A DNA stretch of 59,930 nt, counting the filler. It is 7 parts of 7 records of this genome, joined end to end, with 100 filler letters (N's around TTAATTAATTAA, not from the genome) between each part and the next. Parts side by side here need not be neighbours in the genome. Positions count along the whole stretch, not along the records: positions 1 to 8,427 come from SRR31156797_28901; 6 more parts are not named here. One strand, written 5' to 3'. Position 1 is the first letter of the stretch. Each line of letters opens with the position of its first letter. A program made the translations under genes and the position numbers. This document shows positions 1 through 47,326 of this stretch, piece by piece. The notes under the pieces were generated by a model. It had not been told where the DNA came from and searched no databases. It saw only the letters and a list, made by a program, of their open reading frames with translations.

Positions 1-30
1 AACTAATGATAATTAGGAATTATGAATATG
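1..30 (+). repeat. Left copy of a perfect 30-bp terminal inverted repeat (AACTAATGATAATTAGGAATTATGAATATG), containing an RBS and codons M-N-M of the SIR2-STAND gene
   Basis: Exact reverse complement of 8398-8427; internal dyad CTAAT-gata-ATTAG at 3-16; AGGA just upstream of the ATG at 22. Confidence 0.97.
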
Positions 31-3000
31 CATAATGACAATGAGCGCTTTTTAAACTTTTTACTTACTGATCTTAAAGGTCCTGTGACTTTATTTTTAG
101 GAGCAGGAAGTTCTATGGAAGGTATAGATCGTAATGGAGAACCTTTCCCAAGTTTTGAATATATACAAAAACAAATTATAAACCGTTATGGTAATGATAT
201 ACAAAAAGAAAAAGCAAATGATGAAAATCAAAAAAATGTTTTTGAAATATTCCTTGAGGTAAATAAAGAACTCAGATCAGGAAAGATGGTTAACAGCGTT
301 CTCCTTGAGTACCTAAAAGGAAAACCAGGTTATGCGCATTATCAACTTGCTGCTTCTGTTTTTTCCTTTAAAGATAGTTTATACTTAACTCTAACTCCTA
401 ACTATGACAACCTTTTTAATCATGCAGTTGATAGGCTTTCATGCCACTCAAATAGCATTTTTCAATCATACACACCAGAAATCATCGAAGACAAAGACAT
501 TTCAAGTATAGTAAGAGAATATCCTATTATTATTAAGCTTTTTGGAGATTTAGGAGTTCATGAAAATTTATTTGATCCAAGGGAGCTTGATTGGCAAATA
601 TACAACCTTACAAAGCATGAATACTTTAAATCAAGCTTAAAATATCCAATATTGTTCATTGGATATTCATTTAGTGATAGACTATACGAAGACTTATTTG
701 GCGCTGATGGCAATACCGTGTATATCGTAAATCCTAATGAAATAAAGCTTGAAACTAAACGAAAGTGTATGCAGTTTTTTGGTACTTTTGGTGAATTCAT
801 GGGCGCTTTCCTTGATAAGTTAGAAGAAGATCATATTGATATTTTCGAAAATGTGAAAAACCTGCTATCTAAAATTGACCCAAATGATAAATTTCATCGT
901 TTAGCAGAAGTTATCCCTATAATGTTATCAATGAACAAGCGTGGAAAAGGTATTGTGGAGGATCGTTTTTTAATAAAAAAAGGAGATCAAGCTAGAAAAA
1001 AGTTTCTAATTACTCGTAAGGAAGCTACAAAATGGGTAGAAGAATTTTGTAAGTCAGACTTTCCTCTTATGCTTATTCTTGGAGAGTCAGGATTTGGCAA
1101 AAGTTGCTTTTTATATAACATATCCAATAAGCAAGATGATAATACGATAGTTTCTTTTTTTGCAGGCTCTGCACTTATTAATACTAGCGGGCTTTTGGGA
1201 AGAATTTGTCAGGAGTTTGGTAGTAATATTGACCATGCAAAGAGTCTTTTTAGTCACATAGATAAGTTATTAGGTAAAGAGCCCCAAAAGAAGCAGTGGT
1301 TGATTATTGTTGATGGAATCAACGAATCCCCTGACTATCACTATTTATTTGAAGATATTATAAAAATAGGGGAATGGAATTTTCCTAATATTAAGGTTCT
1401 TTATTCATGTCGTGCTATTTCATGGGAAAACAATTACTTGGCTAACGATTGCTTGAGAAACATGCATTTTTCTGGCTGGTCATGCATTATTGAAAACTTT
1501 ACTTCAGAAGAGAGAGAATTAGCATATGAGAGCTATCGCAGTATATTAGATATTCCTACCGCATATGATGATATTGATGATAGTGTTAAGCAGCATATGA
1601 CTAACCCTCTGATGATGAGAATGATAGTTTTAAGCTACCCTGGTGAGAAATTAATGGAATATGTCCCTAACACTGCGGTATTTGACAACTATTGGAAATT
1701 CCTAGAAGATAAATCAAAAAAAGACAATAACTCCCTAGATATGAACGTATTGCTGTCGCTTGCAAAATATAAAATTGCTCATTTTGCCGCAAGTAATATA
1801 AATAACAGTGATTTATTCTATTTGCGTGACCATCTTGGGGATCTACTGATAAATGAAAAGAATATTCTACCTTGGCAAGATGAGGGAGTTCTAGTTTGGG
1901 TCGATAATAAAGAAAAAAGCTTTCGATTTAGTTTTGATCGTTTTTATGAATATATACTTTCTCTGATTCTAATAGATGATTTTCGCAATAATAAGATAAA
2001 TAATCCTGTAACATGGGTTAATCTAACTCTTAAAGAATATAGTGAACAGCAGGCTCATTTCTCTTATACAGAAGCCCTTAAAGTGTTTTTGATTCATCAA
2101 GGATTGCAAAAACGTGACTTAGACTTACAAAGTTTAATAAATCAAATATCTGAAGGTACTTATCGTAATTTCGCAATACAGGTGCTTAGAGAACTTATAT
2201 TCGAAACTGATCAACCCGTTATGGAGGCTTTTGATAGTGTTATCTCGGTTGCACCTGAGGAGAACATAGATATTTACAAGGAAGCACAACTTACTATTGC
2301 TGCTAACTCATCTAAAATAATTGTTTCTGCTATCAGAGGCATCTTCAGTGGAGATGATAAACTTGCCCATAGGTGTATTCAGCTTCTTTGTACACTTTCA
2401 CCAGAAGATAAAAATGTTTTTACTGAGGATGTAAGAGCTTTTTTGGCAGACCTAGACTCCCTTAGTGAAAACTCTTCAAAGGGTTTCTTATATTTATATG
2501 TATTATATTTTTGCTGGCAGTTAAGATGTAATTCGACGATAGATTTATCCGATGTAAGTAGGGATTATTTTGACCTGATACAAACGTTTTCAAATCACAA
2601 AGATACTCTTATGAGTAGCTTCGTAAATCTTATTAAGCGCTGGGGATCACATTTTTTTAGTACGACAAGCCGTGGGAGTGAAGACCCTTTAAATTATCCG
2701 TGGAAACGCATGGGTACTCCTGAGCGAGCTTATGCACTAAGACTTAGTAAAGCTATAGGTAAGGAGTTTTCAGCATTAAATTCAGATGATATTGAAGCCA
2801 TAAGATTTTTTAGCTTAGAAACTCCAAAAGTTGATGAAATTACAAGCCCTAGACCTAGCGGTATTCCTCATAAATACCCAATCGAATCTATGTTAGGGCA
2901 ATGGGTATTAATTCGTCATGGGAAATCAAACTTCAATGAGATCATCAAAATGCTTGATGTGTTTATGAAAACACAAGATTTCTGCACTAGTGACTATTGC

Positions 3001-3702
3001 ATATGTATCCTTAGTGAGATCTTGAATTTTCATTATCAACCTTGTGATATTGAATATGGACAAGGATTCCAACAGCTTGTGAAGTGGGTTGATTACTTTT
3101 GTGAGAATGATGATTTCTTCTTTGATGTACTAAACAGACAGGATCCGTATAGCGATACGTATAATCCCCTGTGCAACACCGCTTCTATATTCGGAAAGCT
3201 TAATCCGGATAAGCCTAGTAATCAATACTTAGATAAATGGACAAACTCTGAAGATATTAGAAGAAAAAAACTTGGGCTATTTGCTGCTAGAAGACTATGG
3301 AGGAGATACGGAATACAGGTTCTGAACTCTGTTAGCTGTCTCTTTGATATTGATGAAAAGGACACCTATATTTGGTTAAATTACCTAATGAAAGAAGTGT
3401 CTTTGATAAATAGGAACCTTTTTGAACAGTACAGGGCTACGTTGAACTTGTCCGCAGAGAGATTACAGGAAATAGAAAGTACAAAAACCGTTTTAGCAAG
3501 TACAGAAAACTATAGTATTGAGCCAGTTTTAAGTTTACTTTTTAACTCTGGACTTAGTAATGTCAGAATAATTCAAGAGTGGCACAGCACGATCTACTCT
3601 TGTGATTCCCTAGATGATTTTTTGAAAAAACTATCAACACATTTGTATGAGTGGCAAAAAGACGAGTATCTAAATAGTAATTCTACCTTCTGCAACCCAT
3701 AA
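22..3702 (+). CDS. SIR2-like domain + STAND/NACHT-like NTPase + long helical C-terminal region; putative Avs/NLR-like anti-phage protein
   Basis: N-terminal LFLGAGSS, TPNYD, KLFGD and LFIGYSFSD (SIR2_2-like motifs); Walker A GESGFGKS at 1081-1104; Walker B WLIIVDGINE; NPLMMRM and FSFDRFYEY typical of STAND NTPases; 1226 aa. Confidence 0.8.
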   Translation: MNMHNDNERFLNFLLTDLKGPVTLFLGAGSSMEGIDRNGEPFPSFEYIQKQIINRYGNDIQKEKANDENQKNVFEIFLEVNKELRSGKMVNSVLLEYLKGKPGYAHYQLAASVFSFKDSLYLTLTPNYDNLFNHAVDRLSCHSNSIFQSYTPEIIEDKDISSIVREYPIIIKLFGDLGVHENLFDPRELDWQIYNLTKHEYFKSSLKYPILFIGYSFSDRLYEDLFGADGNTVYIVNPNEIKLETKRKCMQFFGTFGEFMGAFLDKLEEDHIDIFENVKNLLSKIDPNDKFHRLAEVIPIMLSMNKRGKGIVEDRFLIKKGDQARKKFLITRKEATKWVEEFCKSDFPLMLILGESGFGKSCFLYNISNKQDDNTIVSFFAGSALINTSGLLGRICQEFGSNIDHAKSLFSHIDKLLGKEPQKKQWLIIVDGINESPDYHYLFEDIIKIGEWNFPNIKVLYSCRAISWENNYLANDCLRNMHFSGWSCIIENFTSEERELAYESYRSILDIPTAYDDIDDSVKQHMTNPLMMRMIVLSYPGEKLMEYVPNTAVFDNYWKFLEDKSKKDNNSLDMNVLLSLAKYKIAHFAASNINNSDLFYLRDHLGDLLINEKNILPWQDEGVLVWVDNKEKSFRFSFDRFYEYILSLILIDDFRNNKINNPVTWVNLTLKEYSEQQAHFSYTEALKVFLIHQGLQKRDLDLQSLINQISEGTYRNFAIQVLRELIFETDQPVMEAFDSVISVAPEENIDIYKEAQLTIAANSSKIIVSAIRGIFSGDDKLAHRCIQLLCTLSPEDKNVFTEDVRAFLADLDSLSENSSKGFLYLYVLYFCWQLRCNSTIDLSDVSRDYFDLIQTFSNHKDTLMSSFVNLIKRWGSHFFSTTSRGSEDPLNYPWKRMGTPERAYALRLSKAIGKEFSALNSDDIEAIRFFSLETPKVDEITSPRPSGIPHKYPIESMLGQWVLIRHGKSNFNEIIKMLDVFMKTQDFCTSDYCICILSEILNFHYQPCDIEYGQGFQQLVKWVDYFCENDDFFFDVLNRQDPYSDTYNPLCNTASIFGKLNPDKPSNQYLDKWTNSEDIRRKKLGLFAARRLWRRYGIQVLNSVSCLFDIDEKDTYIWLNYLMKEVSLINRNLFEQYRATLNLSAERLQEIESTKTVLASTENYSIEPVLSLLFNSGLSNVRIIQEWHSTIYSCDSLDDFLKKLSTHLYEWQKDEYLNSNSTFCNP

Positions 3703-4605
3703 GTGATCATTAGCCCATCTTTTTTTATAAGCCTCTTCGCCTTTACCTAGGTCAAGGATAGGAATTCTTTTTTTTAGGCAATATCTTATTTGCATCATAA
3801 GCATAATTGAGCCTGGAGAATAGCTCTCAAAATTCTTATCATAGACTGTGTAGCATGTTTGAAATACATGAGATGACACACTGCCCATATGTAGTGCAAT
3901 TGGGCGCTCATCAGCAAAAAGCCCTGATAATATTCCACGACAAGAAATCTCTTGTGTATTTAATAGTTCATGCAGGAATGGTCTGACCCAAGGGGTAGCA
4001 AAATCATCCTTAACCTTATTCTCCTTAAATTGGTGACTTTTTAACTCTATCAATAAATCTAATATTTCCTTAGATTTTATAGATTGTTTAAAAACAACAT
4101 TATCGAAGTCCCTCTTTAGTCTACGCAACTTATTTTCAACCTCATGCCAAACCTTGCTCCCTTTTCGGCGCAGATCCCACCTATAATTCATCTCTCCTTT
4201 TGCAAGATTAATCAAACTTACTTTATGCCATGATAAATTAAGCGGCTTTATCTGTAACTCTGCCACTAAGTGATCAAAAACAAATTCTTTTATTTTAAGG
4301 TTATTTAGAAAACTCAAGTAGTCAGCTTTAGAATTATAGTTAAAAACAGGTCCATGGTAGTCACTGACTCCTAGTGCTATAGCTTCACACTTTCCGTCTG
4401 GGCAAGCGTGGAAAGGCATTACAGCCATAAGTTTCTGCTTATCCCAAAGCATTCCTACTTTAGTTGATGAATACGGAGCCAAAGCCTTTGTAAACCAAGG
4501 TGAGAAATTAGGATTGCGATATATTGGTGACTCAGTAAGCAACTGATCCCAAGCAACTAGCTTGTCATGCCCCAGTTCTAAAGCATCCCAAAGCTCATAT
4601 TTCAT
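3670..4605 (-). CDS. GNAT-family acyltransferase (CelD/BcsL-like, Acetyltransf_6 type)
   Basis: Motifs SDYHGP, YSPGSIM and LDLGKGEEAYKKRW; ATGA overlap with the upstream radical SAM gene. Confidence 0.8.
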   Translation of the reverse strand: MKYELWDALELGHDKLVAWDQLLTESPIYRNPNFSPWFTKALAPYSSTKVGMLWDKQKLMAVMPFHACPDGKCEAIALGVSDYHGPVFNYNSKADYLSFLNNLKIKEFVFDHLVAELQIKPLNLSWHKVSLINLAKGEMNYRWDLRRKGSKVWHEVENKLRRLKRDFDNVVFKQSIKSKEILDLLIELKSHQFKENKVKDDFATPWVRPFLHELLNTQEISCRGILSGLFADERPIALHMGSVSSHVFQTCYTVYDKNFESYSPGSIMLMMQIRYCLKKRIPILDLGKGEEAYKKRWANDHLWVAEGRITI

Positions 4606-5309
4606 ACAGTTCTCGCTTTAACATAATCTGAGCCATCACAGCGGGAGCATAGTAAACATGCTTCTTCTCTACTACCAGTCTTAAGAAGTTCTCTATACTT
4701 CTTAAAATTGCGACTTCCCCATATTTCCGGTATACTTTGTTTACTAATGTCACCCATTACATATTCACGGCCATAGTCCTGTACACACAAATACACTTCT
4801 CCGGTGTAGCCTATTATCAGCATCTCAGAAGGTGCGTAGCACGGTAGTTTTAAAGGTTTCTCAACAGCAGAAAGCCAACCTGCACGGGAACTGATCTCTA
4901 AGTCCTCAGGTTGTTTTAAAATAATCTTGGGATGTGGCTCAAAACCAATCCCTGAATGATCAGTCACAACCATTTGACTTATTCCAGAGCTGAATAAGTG
5001 TTGAGTTCGCCCATCTTCTAATAGGGTGCCGTTGCTATATAAGACTAGCTCAGCATCCGGTAGTTTTCGCTTTGCTAATTCCACTAAAGTATCCAAATCA
5101 TCTCTAAGGGTGGGCTCATTATAGCGATGAAAAGTAAGCATTCCTTTAAAATCTATTTTTTTTAACTCATTTAATACGTGATTGAAAAGTTCGTAAGTCA
5201 TATATTGATCTTCTTCAGGAGGATATTTAGATACAGGACAATACTTACATCTTAAATTGCAATCAACATTAACTTCAATTTCAATATGTAATATGCCTAT
5301 TGAGCACAT
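4602..5309 (-). CDS. Radical SAM/SPASM(twitch) enzyme, BtrN-like cyclitol dehydrogenase (copy 2)
   Basis: CNLRCKYC (CxxxCxxC), FHRYNEP, SNG, C-terminal CYAP...LCVQD...CSRC auxiliary-cluster cysteines; paralogue of 5297-6019. Confidence 0.85.
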   Translation of the reverse strand: MCSIGILHIEIEVNVDCNLRCKYCPVSKYPPEEDQYMTYELFNHVLNELKKIDFKGMLTFHRYNEPTLRDDLDTLVELAKRKLPDAELVLYSNGTLLEDGRTQHLFSSGISQMVVTDHSGIGFEPHPKIILKQPEDLEISSRAGWLSAVEKPLKLPCYAPSEMLIIGYTGEVYLCVQDYGREYVMGDISKQSIPEIWGSRNFKKYRELLKTGSREEACLLCSRCDGSDYVKARTV

Positions 5310-6019
5310 GTTATCTCTTTTGTTAATCCTGCAACCGGATAATCAATATTGTCACACAAGGCACAGAGATTCTTGATCTTGTTTCGTTTGCCGCTTGCTA
5401 ATAATTGCCTGGCTTCACTAAATGACTTACTAAACCATATTTCTTGTATGGTGCTATTCTGAAGGTTCCCCATTACTACTTTTTTCTTTGCATCTTCAAA
5501 ACAAAGCAAAACTTCACCATGGCAATTGATAATAAGCATCTCCATTGGAGCATAACACGGTATGTCAATTGGATGATTTAATTTATTAAGAAGTCCCCCT
5601 CTGTTTGTTAATTTAAGATTATTTTTAGTTAGCAATATCTGATTTTTACGCTTTGGGAATATTGCATCTTCATGAAGGGTAACAATAAACTGGTAAATGC
5701 CTGCATCCATCAAACTGCGATAGCGTTCATCTGTCAGTAGTGTACCGTTTGTAAACAATACTGGAACTGCCTTTGGAAGTATCTCTTTAACTTTTTGCAC
5801 AAAAAGTTCTAACTCTTCATGCAACAGTGGCTCATTATATAAATGAAATGAGAAGCGTCCATCAAACTTCATCTCTGCCAGCTGATTTAATATCTGATCA
5901 AATAAATCAGGGTCAATAAACTTTTCTTCTCTTTGCGGTAAAAAAAAGTTGGGACAATAAGGACACTTTAAATTACAAAGGCTATTAATCTCAACTTCTA
6001 CAACTATTGGAGCCTGCAT
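5297..6019 (-). CDS. Radical SAM/SPASM(twitch) enzyme, BtrN-like cyclitol dehydrogenase (copy 1)
   Basis: EVEINSLCNLKCPYCPN, GRFSFHLYNEPLL, TNG, NRGGLL, LCFED..KVVMGN, LCALC; size and motifs match butirosin BtrN as recalled. Confidence 0.85.
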   Translation of the reverse strand: MQAPIVVEVEINSLCNLKCPYCPNFFLPQREEKFIDPDLFDQILNQLAEMKFDGRFSFHLYNEPLLHEELELFVQKVKEILPKAVPVLFTNGTLLTDERYRSLMDAGIYQFIVTLHEDAIFPKRKNQILLTKNNLKLTNRGGLLNKLNHPIDIPCYAPMEMLIINCHGEVLLCFEDAKKKVVMGNLQNSTIQEIWFSKSFSEARQLLASGKRNKIKNLCALCDNIDYPVAGLTKEITCAQ

Positions 6020-8406
6020 TAAATAACACTCTCTATAGCATCTTCTATACGGTTCATATGCTCCTTATTTCCTAAAAACATACGGTGCGGAAAAGTTATC
6101 GTATTGTTTACAAAGTTCTCTACTACCGGCAAGTGAACATTACATTCGCGGAGTATATTGTTAATATGATCTTGTGGAAACCTGTTGCAAAACTGAGGCT
6201 TATATAAGCGGTGACGATATATAGGTAAATCAAAAGAAAATATTCGAACGCCGAGCATACTGGTAAGCTGCTCTGCAATTTTATTTACTTTTTCTTCAGA
6301 GAGGACTGGTAGGCTGACAGCATACTCATATATAGATGCCTTTATGTTATAATCATACTTAAAGTAAGTCTTGACATCTGGTAGCTTATTTAAGGATTCG
6401 TTAAGACTTAGGGCATTGCTAGCTCTTAATTTATTATCATCCATCAGATTTTCTAGTCCTGTACGCAATAACTTGCTTTGTATTTCACTAAGGCAATAGT
6501 TAAAACCTTGCTTTGTGCCTTTTTCTGCCAAATGAAAAGAGTACTGTTCTTGTACTGAGTTCCAGACTCTCCCGTCAGCTCGTAATTCTTGAAGAGTCTC
6601 ATAGTCTTCAAGATCATTACACAATACAACTCCACCTTCACCTGATGTCAGAACTTTTGTTTGCTGCATACTGAACGTTGAAAAACGACCGAAGGAGCCA
6701 ACTTTCCGCCCATTATATGTAGCGCCATGAGCTTGTGAACAATCTTCAATAAGCGGAATATTATATTTTTTAGAAAGCTTTATAAAACGATCAATATCTG
6801 CAACTGAACATAATGAGTGAACAATAATGATCGCTTTAACATTTTTATCAATTTTAGCTTCGGCCTCTTCAGGGCACATACACAGATTACTTGGATCTAA
6901 ATCACAAAAGACAGGGATGCCTCCTATTGATAACACAGATGAAGCACATGCGACCCATGGCGATGGCGGAACTAGTACTTTATTACCAAAGCATACTCCC
7001 GAAGCTTCCAGTGCTATTGATAACGCAGCAGAACCAGTTGAACAGGCAACCCCATATTTCATACCAATAAAGTCAGAAAACTCTTTGCAAAACAATTCTT
7101 CTTCAGTGTTGTTTTGTAAACGTTCACCACTTATTGCCATAGTGCCTACATCTAATATTTCTTCTAAAGCAGAACTTGGCAAACGATTTTGTTGTGGCCA
7201 TTTTGGCCAACCCCAGATATCGTTTATAACCTTTTTGTCACTACCAGTTTTTTGGTCTTTAAGTTTTTCAGCCCAGTTAAAAAGTCTTGCATACTGTATA
7301 TCAATATCATGTACTCTCTCCTGCCCGCTATTAGTCAAAGGAGTTTTATAAAAGTAGCCTAAACTGTCTAGTAATCCCTTGAAGCCTGCTGATTCTGCTT
7401 GAAAAATTAATCTTGCTAAATCTAAGACTGCAGGAGCAGCTAAAATTGAGTCCCACCCAAGCCAATTTAGTTTTAGCTGCATCTTTTGATTAAACATGCC
7501 AGAAAAGTCTATATTGTCCCATGCTTCCTTTGCATCGCCACGTGGCGGATAATAATGAATATTGACCTGATGGCTATATGAGCTGAGTTCATTTCCAGGA
7601 TCATAACCTAAAATTTCTGATAAACATTCACGTTTTGAATTAATCTTAGTTGCTACATTAGAGCTGTCTGAAAGTGTTAATCCATCACCGTTGCCTAGTA
7701 TGTTGGTACTGAACCAACCATCTATTTTAAAGTTTTTATCTCTGAATGCAGGTGCTAATAATGTTTTTAAAAAAGTTTGACCTGTTTTACCATCTCGTCC
7801 AGAGTAAATGGTCCCTTTTTTTAAAGACAAAGAGGCTAACGGTTCAATTTCACAGCAGTTAGGTGTGAAATTTATGAAATGTGCCCCAGACTCTATAGCA
7901 AAACGAAAATACAATCGTCCAGGAGTCACAGATGTATCCTGCCAGGACAAGTTATCAATATTTTCCCAATCAACATAATTTTCAATTACTTCAGGTTCAG
8001 TTGGGCAAAGATTAATAACCACTACACTCGTGATATTATTTTTATCTCTAAATTCATCAAGCCAGGAGAGTTCAATATTAAACCATTCTTTAATGTTAGT
8101 TATATTTGCTATAAGGCCATTTCGAAGCGGAATACTTTTAAGCTGACTTTCTGATAAGGATACTATTTTATCTGGAACACAGGCGTGATGTTTAACACTA
8201 CTCAAGACGTCTGTTTTGTTGACATCCCATCCTGTAATAGCTAGATCATCAAAATCATCAAAAGGAAGATTAAGTTTATTGAATTTTGGAGAATTGGTAA
8301 CCATACCCAGTTTGGCACTATTAGTGCCTCCATATGCAAGAGCGGTGGCTAAAGTGCTGCCAATTGCTCCTCCAAGTCCTGCTACTAAAAGTAATTTCAT
8401 ATTCAT
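6019..8406 (-). CDS. Fusion: myo-inositol-1-phosphate synthase (N-terminal) + DegT/DnrJ PLP aminotransferase of the BtrR/StsC inosose-aminotransferase type (C-terminal)
   Basis: Ino1 motifs GRDGKTGQT, NILGNGDG, YYPPRGDAKEAWD and DSILAAP; aminotransferase motifs WPKWPQ, IEDCSQAHG, FSMQQTKVLTSGEGG (PLP Lys), QELRADGR and QGFNYCLSE; single uninterrupted 795-aa ORF. Confidence 0.9.
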   Translation of the reverse strand: MNMKLLLVAGLGGAIGSTLATALAYGGTNSAKLGMVTNSPKFNKLNLPFDDFDDLAITGWDVNKTDVLSSVKHHACVPDKIVSLSESQLKSIPLRNGLIANITNIKEWFNIELSWLDEFRDKNNITSVVVINLCPTEPEVIENYVDWENIDNLSWQDTSVTPGRLYFRFAIESGAHFINFTPNCCEIEPLASLSLKKGTIYSGRDGKTGQTFLKTLLAPAFRDKNFKIDGWFSTNILGNGDGLTLSDSSNVATKINSKRECLSEILGYDPGNELSSYSHQVNIHYYPPRGDAKEAWDNIDFSGMFNQKMQLKLNWLGWDSILAAPAVLDLARLIFQAESAGFKGLLDSLGYFYKTPLTNSGQERVHDIDIQYARLFNWAEKLKDQKTGSDKKVINDIWGWPKWPQQNRLPSSALEEILDVGTMAISGERLQNNTEEELFCKEFSDFIGMKYGVACSTGSAALSIALEASGVCFGNKVLVPPSPWVACASSVLSIGGIPVFCDLDPSNLCMCPEEAEAKIDKNVKAIIIVHSLCSVADIDRFIKLSKKYNIPLIEDCSQAHGATYNGRKVGSFGRFSTFSMQQTKVLTSGEGGVVLCNDLEDYETLQELRADGRVWNSVQEQYSFHLAEKGTKQGFNYCLSEIQSKLLRTGLENLMDDNKLRASNALSLNESLNKLPDVKTYFKYDYNIKASIYEYAVSLPVLSEEKVNKIAEQLTSMLGVRIFSFDLPIYRHRLYKPQFCNRFPQDHINNILRECNVHLPVVENFVNNTITFPHRMFLGNKEHMNRIEDAIESVI

Positions 8407-8427
8407 AATTCCTAATTATCATTAGTT
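8398..8427 (-). repeat. Right copy of the 30-bp terminal inverted repeat, containing the RBS and codons M-N-M of the Ino1-aminotransferase gene
   Basis: CATATTCATAATTCCTAATTATCATTAGTT is the reverse complement of 1-30 and ends exactly at the contig edge. Confidence 0.97.
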
Positions 8428-8527
8428 NNNNNNNNNNNNNNNNNNNNNNNNNNNNNNNNNNNNNNNNNNNNTTAATTAATTAANNNNNNNNNNNNNNNNN
8501 NNNNNNNNNNNNNNNNNNNNNNNNNNN
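8428..8527. other. Artificial contig spacer (N run with TTAATTAATTAA six-frame stop)
   Basis: Identical 100-bp design repeated six times in the window. Confidence 0.99.
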
Positions 8528-18253: not shown

Positions 18254-18353
18254 NNNNNNNNNNNNNNNNNNNNNNNNNNNNNNNNNNNNNNNNNNNNTTA
18301 ATTAATTAANNNNNNNNNNNNNNNNNNNNNNNNNNNNNNNNNNNNNNNNNNNN
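18254..18353. other. Artificial contig spacer
   Basis: N run with TTAATTAATTAA. Confidence 0.99.
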
Positions 18354-29464: not shown

Positions 29465-29564
29465 NNNNNNNNNNNNNNNNNNNNNNNNNNNNNNNNNNNN
29501 NNNNNNNNTTAATTAATTAANNNNNNNNNNNNNNNNNNNNNNNNNNNNNNNNNNNNNNNNNNNN
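29465..29564. other. Artificial contig spacer
   Basis: N run with TTAATTAATTAA. Confidence 0.99.
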
Positions 29565-34996: not shown

Positions 34997-35096
34997 NNNN
35001 NNNNNNNNNNNNNNNNNNNNNNNNNNNNNNNNNNNNNNNNTTAATTAATTAANNNNNNNNNNNNNNNNNNNNNNNNNNNNNNNNNNNNNNNNNNNN
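34997..35096. other. Artificial contig spacer
   Basis: N run with TTAATTAATTAA. Confidence 0.99.
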
Positions 35097-41844: not shown

Positions 41845-41944
41845 NNNNNNNNNNNNNNNNNNNNNNNNNNNNNNNNNNNNNNNNNNNNTTAATTAATTAA
41901 NNNNNNNNNNNNNNNNNNNNNNNNNNNNNNNNNNNNNNNNNNNN
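41845..41944. other. Artificial contig spacer
   Basis: N run with TTAATTAATTAA. Confidence 0.99.
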
Positions 41945-47226: not shown

Positions 47227-47326
47227 NNNNNNNNNNNNNNNNNNNNNNNNNNNNNNNNNNNNNNNNNNNNTTAATTAATTAANNNNNNNNNNNNNNNNNN
47301 NNNNNNNNNNNNNNNNNNNNNNNNNN
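47227..47326. other. Artificial contig spacer
   Basis: N run with TTAATTAATTAA. Confidence 0.99.

Follow-up and report, generated by a model that had tools for sequence, protein, structure and literature searches.

Why do a short operon of aminocyclitol-type enzymes and the gene of an NLR-like STAND NTPase face each other between two identical inverted repeats? This arrangement occupies the first contig (positions 1-8427) of the window, by which we mean the whole stretch of 59,930 bases that was analysed. The window consists of seven unrelated contigs, split by six linkers in which TTAATTAATTAA, a 12-nt six-frame stop motif, stands between two blocks of 44 N (N44). The GC contents of the seven contigs were 35.5, 42, 48, 37, 59.5, 58, and 39%, the first of these being that of the cassette contig. 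Because everything past 8427 belongs to another contig, only 1-8427 counts as genomic context, and the DUF1614, KaiC-like, and dihydroorotase genes beyond 8527 were rejected as neighbours. The cassette contig probably represents an invertible unit in which an aminocyclitol pathway and an NLR-like protein are combined and work together as a phase-variable conflict or defence module. The product of the pathway, the flipping of this particular cassette, and an anti-phage role are what we infer from the comparisons below.

The contig contains five genes, one on the plus strand that converges on an operon of four on the minus strand (Table 1). The first-pass annotation had described the latter as four translationally coupled genes, and the open reading frames (ORFs), the TAATG junction at 6019, and the overlaps of 13 nt (5297-5309) and 4 nt (4602-4605) were all confirmed. 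Its statement that glycosyltransferase, phosphatase, exporter, and NAD dehydrogenase genes are lacking also held for the five genes, as judged from ORF calls and Pfam. It had further taken the terminal repeat as the boundary of the four-gene unit; this has to be corrected, since the repeat encloses the STAND NTPase gene (22-3702) as well. The 3' ends of the two convergent units overlap by 33 nt, which leaves no space for a terminator, and in the sister loci described below the 3' ends of the two arms overlap or lie no more than 67 nt apart. Homologues of the fusion protein that heads the operon begin at MKL, so its true start is probably the third codon, the ATG at 8400. Scans for promoters and terminators gave counts equal to those in shuffled sequence and were hence unused.

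The proposal that the operon encodes aminocyclitol-type enzymes was supported by comparison with PDB sequences. The myo-inositol-3-phosphate synthase (Ino1) domain of the fusion matched inositol-3-phosphate synthases in the PDB (7nwr, 2.3e-49; the Archaeoglobus fulgidus enzyme, 1.4e-39), and D205, N235, L237, K254, K258, K293, D319, and K354 align to D225, N255, L257, K274, K278, K306, D332, and K367 of the A. fulgidus enzyme, residues that we take to be the catalytic ones of Archaeoglobus Ino1; the K367A entry 3qvx has Ala at the last of these positions. The domain is approximately 35% identical to named bacterial synthases, and its sole NCBIfam match was the mycothiol-type model TIGR03450, which describes another subtype (15.8 bits vs a cut-off of 638). 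For the aminotransferase domain, the best PDB matches were 5w70, 5w71, and 2c7t (5e-77 to 8e-71), all of which are L-glutamine:2-deoxy-scyllo-inosose aminotransferases, BtrR among them, whereas all other DegT enzymes, including sugar aminotransferases, matched at 1e-38 or weaker and the solved glutamine-scyllo-inositol transaminase 7b0d at 1.9e-38. Fusion of Ino1 to the aminotransferase is rare, found in 6 of the best 120 homologues listed, all metagenomic. Ino1 has further fusion partners, namely an SHMT-like pyridoxal phosphate domain (approximately 805 aa) and a nucleotidyltransferase domain (658 aa); examples of Ino1 fusions are L120:5615-8038, P0009, P0011, P0012, P0029, and P0035.

Both radical S-adenosylmethionine (SAM) proteins fit BtrN-type (twitch) dehydrogenases, as predicted from their alignments. 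Paralogue 1 matched PDB BtrN at 6.6e-49 over residues 6-226 of 240, and paralogue 2 matched it (4m7s) at 3e-36 over residues 9-226 of 235; the next matches were at 9e-4 and approximately 1e-3, respectively. The CX3CX2C motif (C15, C19, and C22) is invariant in the alignment of BtrN-like proteins and aligns to the BtrN motif, and four further invariant cysteines (C155, C173, C219, and C222) are presumably the ligands of the second cluster of BtrN. A tree made by a quick search from the BtrN-like proteins of 83 loci (90 sequences) has many open forks; in it, all 11 sequences from STAND-linked modules fell inside one 35-row clade (SH-aLRT 94), which also includes BtrN-like proteins from clusters with 2-deoxy-scyllo-inosose synthase; the other half of the tree holds the Paenibacillus butirosin-type enzymes together with many BtrN-like proteins of Bacteriovoracaceae. 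A grouping of the enzymes with generic SPASM proteins or with aminotransferases that act on sugars or O-antigen would have spoken against the proposal, and no such grouping was seen. BtrN-like genes stood in other settings as well. In a Promethearchaeota (Asgard) metagenome-assembled genome (MAG), a BtrN-like gene adjoins a BtrR-like aminotransferase gene (L090:10001-12092), and its product groups in the tree with bacterial sequences from 2-deoxy-scyllo-inosose-synthase clusters.

No sequence relative of the tandem-GNAT protein was found in the PDB. Its AlphaFold model (pLDDT 93.2) matched FemX best in Foldseek (TM 0.68, E 2e-10), followed by aminoacyl-phosphatidylglycerol synthase domains of MprF and by Sba18 and Sbb17 (TM 0.61-0.68), the last two being aminoacyl-tRNA-dependent peptide synthases that were solved with the aminosugar streptothrisamine. 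Nine of the ten top-ranked chains were aminoacyl-tRNA-dependent enzymes, and tandem GNATs that use acetyl-CoA ranked lower (TM 0.41-0.56). On the basis of the model, the protein is more likely a Fem-type aminoacyl-tRNA-dependent transferase, with aminoacylation rather than acetylation as the tailoring step. A plain N-acetyltransferase is disfavoured by the Foldseek result.

The plus-strand gene encodes a protein that begins with a SIR2-like domain, continues with a predicted P-loop NTPase core, and has a long C-terminal part without a recognised fold. Its Pfam scores lay at or below the cut-off (SIR2_2, 5.9e-5; NPHP3_N, 4e-5, 24.3 vs 24.8; AAA_22, 1.2e-3, 19.6 vs 27), and the Walker A residues G354, G357, G359, K360, and S361 are invariant among six homologues. 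Homologues in five other loci (L001, L005, L082, L091, and L120) share 22-27% identity over more than 96% of their length. This family, here called STAND1, has a CHAT domain ahead of the SIR2-like domain in three loci, and only 16 relatives were found among 5.8 billion protein clusters. Four close relatives are encoded on contigs of 22734, 8019, 7152, and 5180, the same sizes as those of contigs with relatives of the fusion or the GNAT, so they appear to share contigs with relatives of the operon genes; neither genome scans nor protein clusters yielded a STAND1 homologue in a known context away from the operon. Searched alone against the PDB, the SIR2-like sequence of the window gave no match, and a profile of five sequences was required. 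This profile aligned to the SIR2 NADase KomC, with F174 on H146, which we take to be the catalytic His from the entry named KomC(H146N). Phe or Trp occupies this position in each of the six STAND1 proteins, and in three of them the conserved Asn is missing as well; both residues are retained in the SIR2 protein that L085 encodes separately. With the catalytic His gone, a binding or adaptor domain is likelier than an NADase, and the SIR2-like domain of the window is, as judged from its residues, probably not an NADase. Between the recombinase and the module of L001, outside the inverted sites, lies a gene for a 521-aa SIR2-like-CHAT protein (L001:6304-7869), which is paralogous to the N-terminal part of the STAND protein of that module (hidden Markov model, 3.5e-70) and is also devoid of the catalytic His.

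A second partner family, STAND2, is unrelated in sequence to STAND1 and has an Mrr-type nuclease N-domain (PF04471, 8e-6 in L094); the possibility that this domain is a degenerate SIR2 was rejected (hhalign probability 0.1). The STAND homologues match NACHT and Avs2 models in part only, with partial Avs2 matches in PADLOC for the proteins of L001 and L005 (1e-14 and 1e-9). PADLOC also clearly matched the TIR protein of L120 to CBASS/Pycsar TIR effectors (5e-28) and gave a clear effector match for the SIR2 protein of L085 (1.5e-22).

The pairing recurs well beyond the window. Our scans covered the best 80 loci of 318 relatives in the JGI metagenomes and, with the BtrN-like alignment against one genome per species, the best 80 loci of 111 relatives, six of which are modules. 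Including the window, nine loci combine an aminotransferase and a BtrN-like protein with a convergent STAND gene (Table 1). L001 and L005, the two modules from the metagenome scan, keep the order Ino1, aminotransferase, one or two BtrN-like proteins, and tailoring enzyme, followed by the convergent STAND1 homologue, and the short contig L002 has the same upstream motif as these two. Several sister loci have tailoring enzymes of aminoglycoside type in place of the Fem-like protein, namely an APH(2'')-like kinase (1.8e-23), a GT2-like protein, and a carbamoyltransferase. In L085, a mycothiol-type Ino1 (4e-127) stands at a different position in the operon; a distinct type of Ino1 at another place suggests that inositol-phosphate synthesis is the selected function. 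The gene for 2-deoxy-scyllo-inosose synthase was found in none of the nine module loci vs 15 of the other loci. A divergent gene for a GFO/IDH/MocA oxidoreductase of the inositol dehydrogenase family lies just outside the left site in L096 (L096:7075-8307), whose module is without Ino1. The module is sporadic: the Azospirillum family has it in 1 of 130 genomes, the Arcobacteraceae in 2 of 184, and the Acidobacteriota in 1 of 401 sampled. Searches of viral collections yielded one Ino1-only locus and, with the BtrN-like alignment, nothing, and phage records likewise gave nothing; plasmids gave no more than partial matches in Edwardsiella and, on Sodalis pHS1, a cluster of the classical 2-deoxystreptamine type.

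The two arms of the inverted repeat in the window are 100% complementary (two matches vs zero expected) and bracket all five genes, with their inner ends exactly at an ATG of each outer gene. In run X1, the corresponding Logan contig is exactly 8427 nt long with a depth of 18.7, and a 32-nt Logan record of depth 36 spans window positions 1-30 plus 2 nt outward. This double depth indicates a terminal repeat of 32 nt with two copies per genome. The break of the contig was rejected as a sign of flipping, as an assembly graph with k = 31 collapses a 32-nt repeat. The data of run X1 were contigs, and orientation was judged from contigs rather than from junction reads. In two independent assemblies, L005 (9504 nt) and L094 (7096 nt), the contigs are the cassette alone and end in or near the inverted sites, a weak hint that assemblies tend to break there.

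All repeats share a 17-nt core that reads GATAA-N7-TTAT(C/G) inward. In the window, the core is GATAATTAGGAATTATG, whose spacer contains the ribosome-site-like AGGA, and the repeat supplies a ribosome site and a start codon to both arms; loci of low GC likewise have AGGA in the core centre, with the start ATG at the end of their inner arm. The whole unit is flanked by an inverted repeat with this core, 16-39 nt long, in all eight module loci for which both upstream regions are available; L094 stands outside this count, its contig stopping 15-19 nt short on both sides. The seven central bases vary between loci and are identical in the two copies within each locus. Two exact copies of the core are present in the 3.6-Mb genome of Halarcobacter and two in the 6.9-Mb genome of Azospirillum, in both cases at the module alone, which argues against a host regulon. 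On the same ground, two copies per genome, and for its different arm spacing, a global operator (e.g., an iron-regulator box, which has similar arms) was rejected. Most likely, the inverted sites are targets of an Xer-like tyrosine recombinase encoded just outside the contig. A 66-nt stretch that is 83% identical between L082:4357-4422 and L091:17275-17340 lies on opposite flanks of the two modules.

Such a recombinase gene lies within 4 kb of the unit in five of the six loci with flanks. Its product scores under both the XerC and XerD equivalog cut-offs, and a match to integron integrases was rejected because it lay well below those to XerC and XerD. In L120 and L085, the gene lies on the operon side and its end is no more than 35 nt from the site; in L096, it lies on the STAND side and its end falls inside the site; in L001 and L091, it is 1.6-3.6 kb away. 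The module recombinases are 32-51% identical across phyla. The same family was found at 28 places in 23 of 184 Arcobacteraceae genomes, of which 16 neighbourhoods were taken and 12 were analysed in detail (L185-L188 stand outside the oriented comparison). In 11 of these 12, the core follows the recombinase gene within approximately 50 nt, with an inverted copy (at most two mismatches) 1.6-4.0 kb further on; the cargos between the sites are given in Table 1.

Comparison of close relatives showed that segments bounded by this site do invert. Between L181 and L182, the recombinase is collinear (90.2%, 986 nt) and the cassette is inverted (94.6%, 1710 nt), and the same holds for L173 and L183 (recombinase, 69.8%; cassette, 75.5%, 1594 nt). 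Relative to L184, with the recombinase kept on the plus strand, L181 is inverted and L182 collinear. In the ATP-grasp/STAND cassettes, the STAND arm lies beside the recombinase in three and the ATP-grasp arm in one. These cassettes, which gave no PADLOC match but a weak one to mad3 (0.00024, 18.8 bits) for the STAND protein of L176, could represent a second type of enzyme-plus-STAND cassette. For the aminocyclitol cassette itself, flipping is extrapolated from the same site, the related recombinase, and the opposite arrangements in L120 and L085 vs L096; the flanks of L002 and L001 are 70% identical, too diverged to reveal an inversion.

Table 1. Features of the window, loci with the aminocyclitol module, and other cassettes bounded by the same type of site.
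Feature or locus	Position, source, or number of loci	Strand	Description
Inverted repeat, left arm	1-30		Inner end is the ATG at 28-30; core GATAATTAGGAATTATG at 8-24
STAND (NLR-like) NTPase	22-3702	+	1226 aa; SIR2-like domain at nt ~79-801; P-loop at nt ~1081-1104
3'-end overlap of convergent units	3670-3702		33 nt
Tandem-GNAT protein	3670-4605	-	311 aa; Acetyltransf_6 (PF13480) 5.8e-21, weak ATE_C 1.9e-5
BtrN-type radical SAM paralogue 2	4602-5309	-	235 aa; Radical_SAM + SPASM
BtrN-type radical SAM paralogue 1	5297-6019	-	240 aa; Radical_SAM + SPASM
Ino1-aminotransferase fusion	6019-8406	-	795 aa; Pfam NAD_binding_5 1.1e-27, Inos-1-P_synth 3.5e-30, DegT_DnrJ_EryC1 3.2e-67
Aminotransferase domain of fusion	6019-7212	-	aa ~399-795; BtrR/BtrS-type; PF01041 3.2e-67
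myo-Inositol-3-phosphate synthase domain of fusion	7252-8406	-	aa 1 to ~385; PF07994 + PF01658
Inverted repeat, right arm	8398-8427		Core at 8404-8420
Linkers	8428-8527, 18254-18353, 29465-29564, 34997-35096, 41845-41944, 47227-47326		N44-stop motif-N44
Module, window	Logan contig		Ino1-aminotransferase fusion, BtrN x2, Fem-like GNAT; partner STAND1
Module, L001	Metagenome		Ino1, aminotransferase, BtrN x2, APH-family kinase; partner STAND1
Module, L005	Metagenome		Ino1, aminotransferase, BtrN, GT2-like, APH(2'')-like kinase; partner CHAT-SIR2-NACHT form of STAND1
Module, L091	Holophagales MAG		Ino1, aminotransferase, BtrN, GT2-like, APH(2'')-like kinase; partner CHAT-SIR2-NACHT STAND1
Module, L082	Acidobacteriota MAG		Ino1, aminotransferase, BtrN, GT2-like, no kinase; partner CHAT-SIR2-NACHT STAND1
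Module, L120	Halarcobacter		Ino1-SHMT-like fusion, Cap12-like TIR protein, aminotransferase, BtrN, Fem-like GNAT; partner STAND1
Module, L085	Azospirillum brasilense ATCC 49958		Aminotransferase, BtrN, Fem-like GNAT, mycothiol-type Ino1, SIR2 protein; partner STAND2
Module, L096	Devosiaceae MAG		Aminotransferase, BtrN, Fem-like GNAT; partner STAND2
Module, L094	SAR324 MAG		Aminotransferase, BtrN, carbamoyltransferase; partner STAND2
Other cargo	4 loci		D-Ala-D-Ala-ligase-like ATP-grasp vs STAND-like NTPase
ATP-grasp/STAND cassettes	L176:2954-6222, L178:12147-15983, L174:2980-6510, L179:2978-6436		Convergent; STAND-like protein of 707-823 aa
Other cargo	L177		ATP-grasp enzyme vs pentapeptide-repeat protein
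Other cargo	3 loci: L181, L182, L184		GNAT vs methyltransferase
Other cargo	2 loci: L173, L183		Methyltransferase vs protein without assigned family
Other cargo	L180		Restriction-modification N6 methylase + HsdS specificity subunit

Taken together, the enzymes outline a possible route. From its family, the Ino1 domain would convert glucose-6-phosphate to inositol-3-phosphate, a BtrN-type dehydrogenase would oxidise a ring hydroxyl to a ketone, and the fused BtrR-type aminotransferase would use glutamine to turn the ketone into an inosamine. A second round by the other BtrN paralogue would give a streptamine-like diamine, one amine of which may be acylated by the Fem-type transferase, probably with an amino acid from an aminoacyl-tRNA; dephosphorylation, if there is any, would fall to a host enzyme. 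Across the loci, one dehydrogenase would lead to an inosamine and two to a streptamine-like diamine, and tailoring may depend on the locus, by aminoacylation, phosphorylation, glycosylation, or carbamoylation. Flipping would decide which of the two arms lies behind a promoter outside the cassette; where both abut, the recombinase gene reads straight into the adjacent arm. Because their 3' ends overlap, the arms would be antagonistic, read-through of the active arm opposing the other.

As for the link between the arms, we prefer a model in which the STAND protein and the effectors use the compound as a ligand or co-factor; alternatively, the compound itself may be the antiviral agent. That the link is functional is suggested by a pairing that survives swaps of the STAND family, the Ino1 type, and the tailoring enzyme, by effector genes inside the biosynthetic operon (TIR in L120, SIR2 in L085), by the catalytically dead nucleotide-binding fold of STAND1, and by the ATP-grasp/STAND cassettes, which repeat the enzyme-plus-STAND pattern. 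The defence reading follows from the conservation of the pairing across phyla and from the TIR, SIR2, CHAT, and Mrr domains in sister loci. The suggestion of the first-pass annotation that the chemistry acts against phages gains context from the Avs-like STAND partner and from these same domains, and it is unproven.

Several other explanations were weighed. In a more specific and still tentative version, the cassette would be an immune module in which a STAND protein is hard-wired to a small-molecule pathway and an Xer-like flip chooses between 'make compound' and 'sense and kill'; the aminocyclitol would then be a ligand, a second messenger, a guard metabolite, or an antiviral pro-drug, toggling would provide division of labour or bet-hedging within a clone, and the ATP-grasp/STAND cassettes would be further members of an enzyme-plus-NLR class. 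The operon and the STAND gene might instead be independent cargos that happen to lie in one exchangeable cassette, the aminocyclitol acting by itself as an antibiotic or a chemical defence and the STAND protein being an ordinary Avs-like sensor. The recombinase platform does bear unrelated cargos (restriction-modification genes, a GNAT with a methyltransferase, RNase T2 with NACHT), defence genes generally cluster, and aminoglycosides reportedly inhibit phage infection; yet the pairing recurs in nine loci, among which four kinds of tailoring enzyme and two STAND families of unrelated sequence occur, no STAND1 homologue turned up in a known context elsewhere, TIR and SIR2 effector genes sit within the biosynthetic operons of L120 and L085, respectively, and the parallel ATP-grasp and STAND cassettes suggest a general enzyme-plus-STAND logic, all of which makes independence rather doubtful. 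It is less likely still that the repeats are copies of a promoter-operator and ribosome-site element that co-regulates both arms, with the recombinase merely marking a mobile island. The core is a 5-7-5 palindrome that includes the ribosome site and is placed 4-50 nt upstream of both starts, an Xre-type helix-turn-helix gene adjoins the right arm in L001, and the flanks of L082 are without a recombinase, as this explanation would allow. However, the two copies of a locus agree in the asymmetric central bases and in some flanking bases, and these vary from locus to locus, no conserved regulator gene accompanies the module, the core occurs just twice per genome, and the same site and recombinase family bracket cassettes that are inverted between close relatives.

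The remaining two explanations concern the chemistry, and both are improbable. Were the enzymes to act on a nucleotide sugar or a surface glycan (capsule, lipopolysaccharide, or flagellin), the locus would vary surface chemistry by phase and would make no free aminocyclitol. DegT aminotransferases, GNATs, methyltransferases, and ATP-grasp enzymes are indeed frequent in glycan loci, the best NCBIfam models for the aminotransferase are sugar aminotransferases, albeit far under the cut-off (PseC, 158 vs 423 bits), and BtrN-like proteins of Bacteriovoracaceae lie among GT1 and carbamoyltransferase genes. Set against this, the aminotransferase matches inosose aminotransferases approximately 40 orders of magnitude better than sugar aminotransferases and is fused to an intact inositol-phosphate synthase, the module BtrN-like proteins group with those of 2-deoxystreptamine-type clusters, the cassette encodes no nucleotidyltransferase, flippase, polymerase, or glycosyltransferase, and the partner is a cytoplasmic STAND NTPase. 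Marginally less probable again is a small aminoglycoside-like antibiotic cluster with the STAND protein as its pathway regulator, in the manner of the large ATP-binding regulators of actinomycetes. STAND-class regulators do occur in biosynthetic clusters, and some tailoring enzymes resemble self-resistance enzymes such as APH(2''), but a DNA-binding domain was found in none of the STAND proteins, their N-domains are SIR2-like, CHAT, or Mrr nuclease, no exporter is present, and the window has no resistance gene.

The reading of a cooperating, invertible defence module has its own difficulties. If only a single arm is expressed at any moment, cooperation within the same cell is hard to explain; it would need promoters on both flanks, or two states acting at the level of the population. 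The route is ambiguous as to one or two dehydrogenases and whether the phosphate is kept, L096 and L094 have no Ino1 inside the unit, and the product, enzyme activities, and phage phenotype are predictions from sequence. On the side of inversion, the window contig carries neither recombinase nor flanks and its end in the repeat reflects the k = 31 assembly, the flanks of L082 (7.4 kb and 5.2 kb) lack a recombinase gene, and aminocyclitol cassettes differ in orientation only between distant loci (L120 and L085 vs L096). On the side of defence, the Pfam matches of the window STAND protein reach the cut-off level at most, no PADLOC model matched this protein, and the window cassette is without a recognisable active effector domain.

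Each part of the module is of a known kind. The butirosin/neomycin 2-deoxystreptamine pathway (BtrC, BtrR/BtrS, and BtrN) shares with it the BtrR-type glutamine aminotransferase, the BtrN-type radical SAM dehydrogenase, and the order of cyclase, aminotransferase, and dehydrogenase. Ring closure differs, being assigned to Ino1 in the module and to the dehydroquinate-synthase-like 2-deoxy-scyllo-inosose synthase in the 2-deoxystreptamine pathway; in addition, the window has two dehydrogenases and no glycosyltransferase, deacetylase, or exporter, and inverted sites enclose the operon together with its STAND partner gene. For streptidine (StrI, StsC, and StsE) and rhizopine (IolG and MosB), routes are known that lead from inositol to scyllo-inosamine. 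They likewise proceed from myo-inositol by oxidation and then transamination, and StsE is paralleled by the APH-family kinase of sister loci; in the module, however, oxidation would be performed by radical SAM enzymes rather than NAD-dependent dehydrogenases, Ino1 is built into the operon, and the aminotransferase resembles the 2-deoxy-scyllo-inosose enzymes more closely than it does the glutamine-scyllo-inositol transaminase 7b0d. More generally, classical aminoglycoside clusters contain 2-deoxy-scyllo-inosose synthase or an NAD inositol dehydrogenase, glycosyltransferases, and exporter or resistance genes, none of which is present on the 8.4-kb contig.

Among immune systems, Avs and other antiviral STAND proteins have the same layout, in which an effector-type domain at the N-terminus is followed by a P-loop NTPase and then by an extended C-terminal part, whereas the module STAND protein is always paired with a multi-enzyme small-molecule pathway and the SIR2-like domain of the window has no catalytic His. 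Thoeris, CBASS, and Pycsar likewise place small-molecule synthesis beside TIR or SIR2 NAD-consuming effector domains; unlike these signal-based systems, the module would make a multi-step aminocyclitol instead of a one-step nucleotide signal, and no cyclase, TIR synthase, or known sensor domain (SAVED, SLOG, or Macro) was found. Invertible segments with an outside recombinase include the G segment of phage Mu with Gin, hsdS invertons, and pdif modules. These also consist of inward-reading units between short inverted sites with the recombinase just outside, and the arms of the module site share the inner ATAA...TTAT shape of dif-like sites. The enzyme differs from the Gin-type serine invertase of the Mu G segment in being an Xer-like tyrosine recombinase, and the module differs from known invertons in sites that hold a ribosome site and start codon and in a cargo of whole genes or operons of 1.6-10 kb in place of alternative segments of a gene. 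A full-text literature search, outside which supplementary tables fell, found no paper on this gene combination.

The scans also recovered BtrN-like genes in clusters of other kinds. Conserved 2-deoxystreptamine-type clusters were found in insect-associated Enterobacterales, namely Xenorhabdus and Photorhabdus (L100-L103, L107, and L110) and Sodalis praecaptivus pHS1 (L165), where 2-deoxy-scyllo-inosose synthase and a BtrN-like protein are accompanied by GT4, a PIG-L deacetylase, a GMC oxidoreductase, a class-III aminotransferase, and an ABC exporter. The predatory Bdellovibrionota, mostly Bacteriovoracaceae and Halobacteriovoraceae, were rich in BtrN-like genes, often with two per locus (L113, L117, L121-L137, L139-L141, L144-L149, L151-L152, and L154-L161), and their clusters add SPASM and B12 radical SAM enzymes, GT1, carbamoyltransferases, and a protein with an S74 chaperone domain.

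If the chemistry is right, the cassette would be the shortest known genetic route to an aminocyclitol, with four genes, Ino1 as the cyclase, and no NAD-dependent dehydrogenase, and it would be useful for pathway engineering and for probing the roles of free aminocyclitols in cells. An Xer-like gene, the 17-nt core, and an inverted partner 1.6-10 kb away provide a search rule for more such cassettes, and the platform opens the question of whether inversion of whole cassettes acts as a switch for defence genes. Because Azospirillum brasilense ATCC 49958 is culturable and carries a complete module (L085), experiments are within reach. Above all, the conserved pairing with an NLR-like protein raises the question of whether STAND immunity in bacteria may be coupled to a home-made metabolite.

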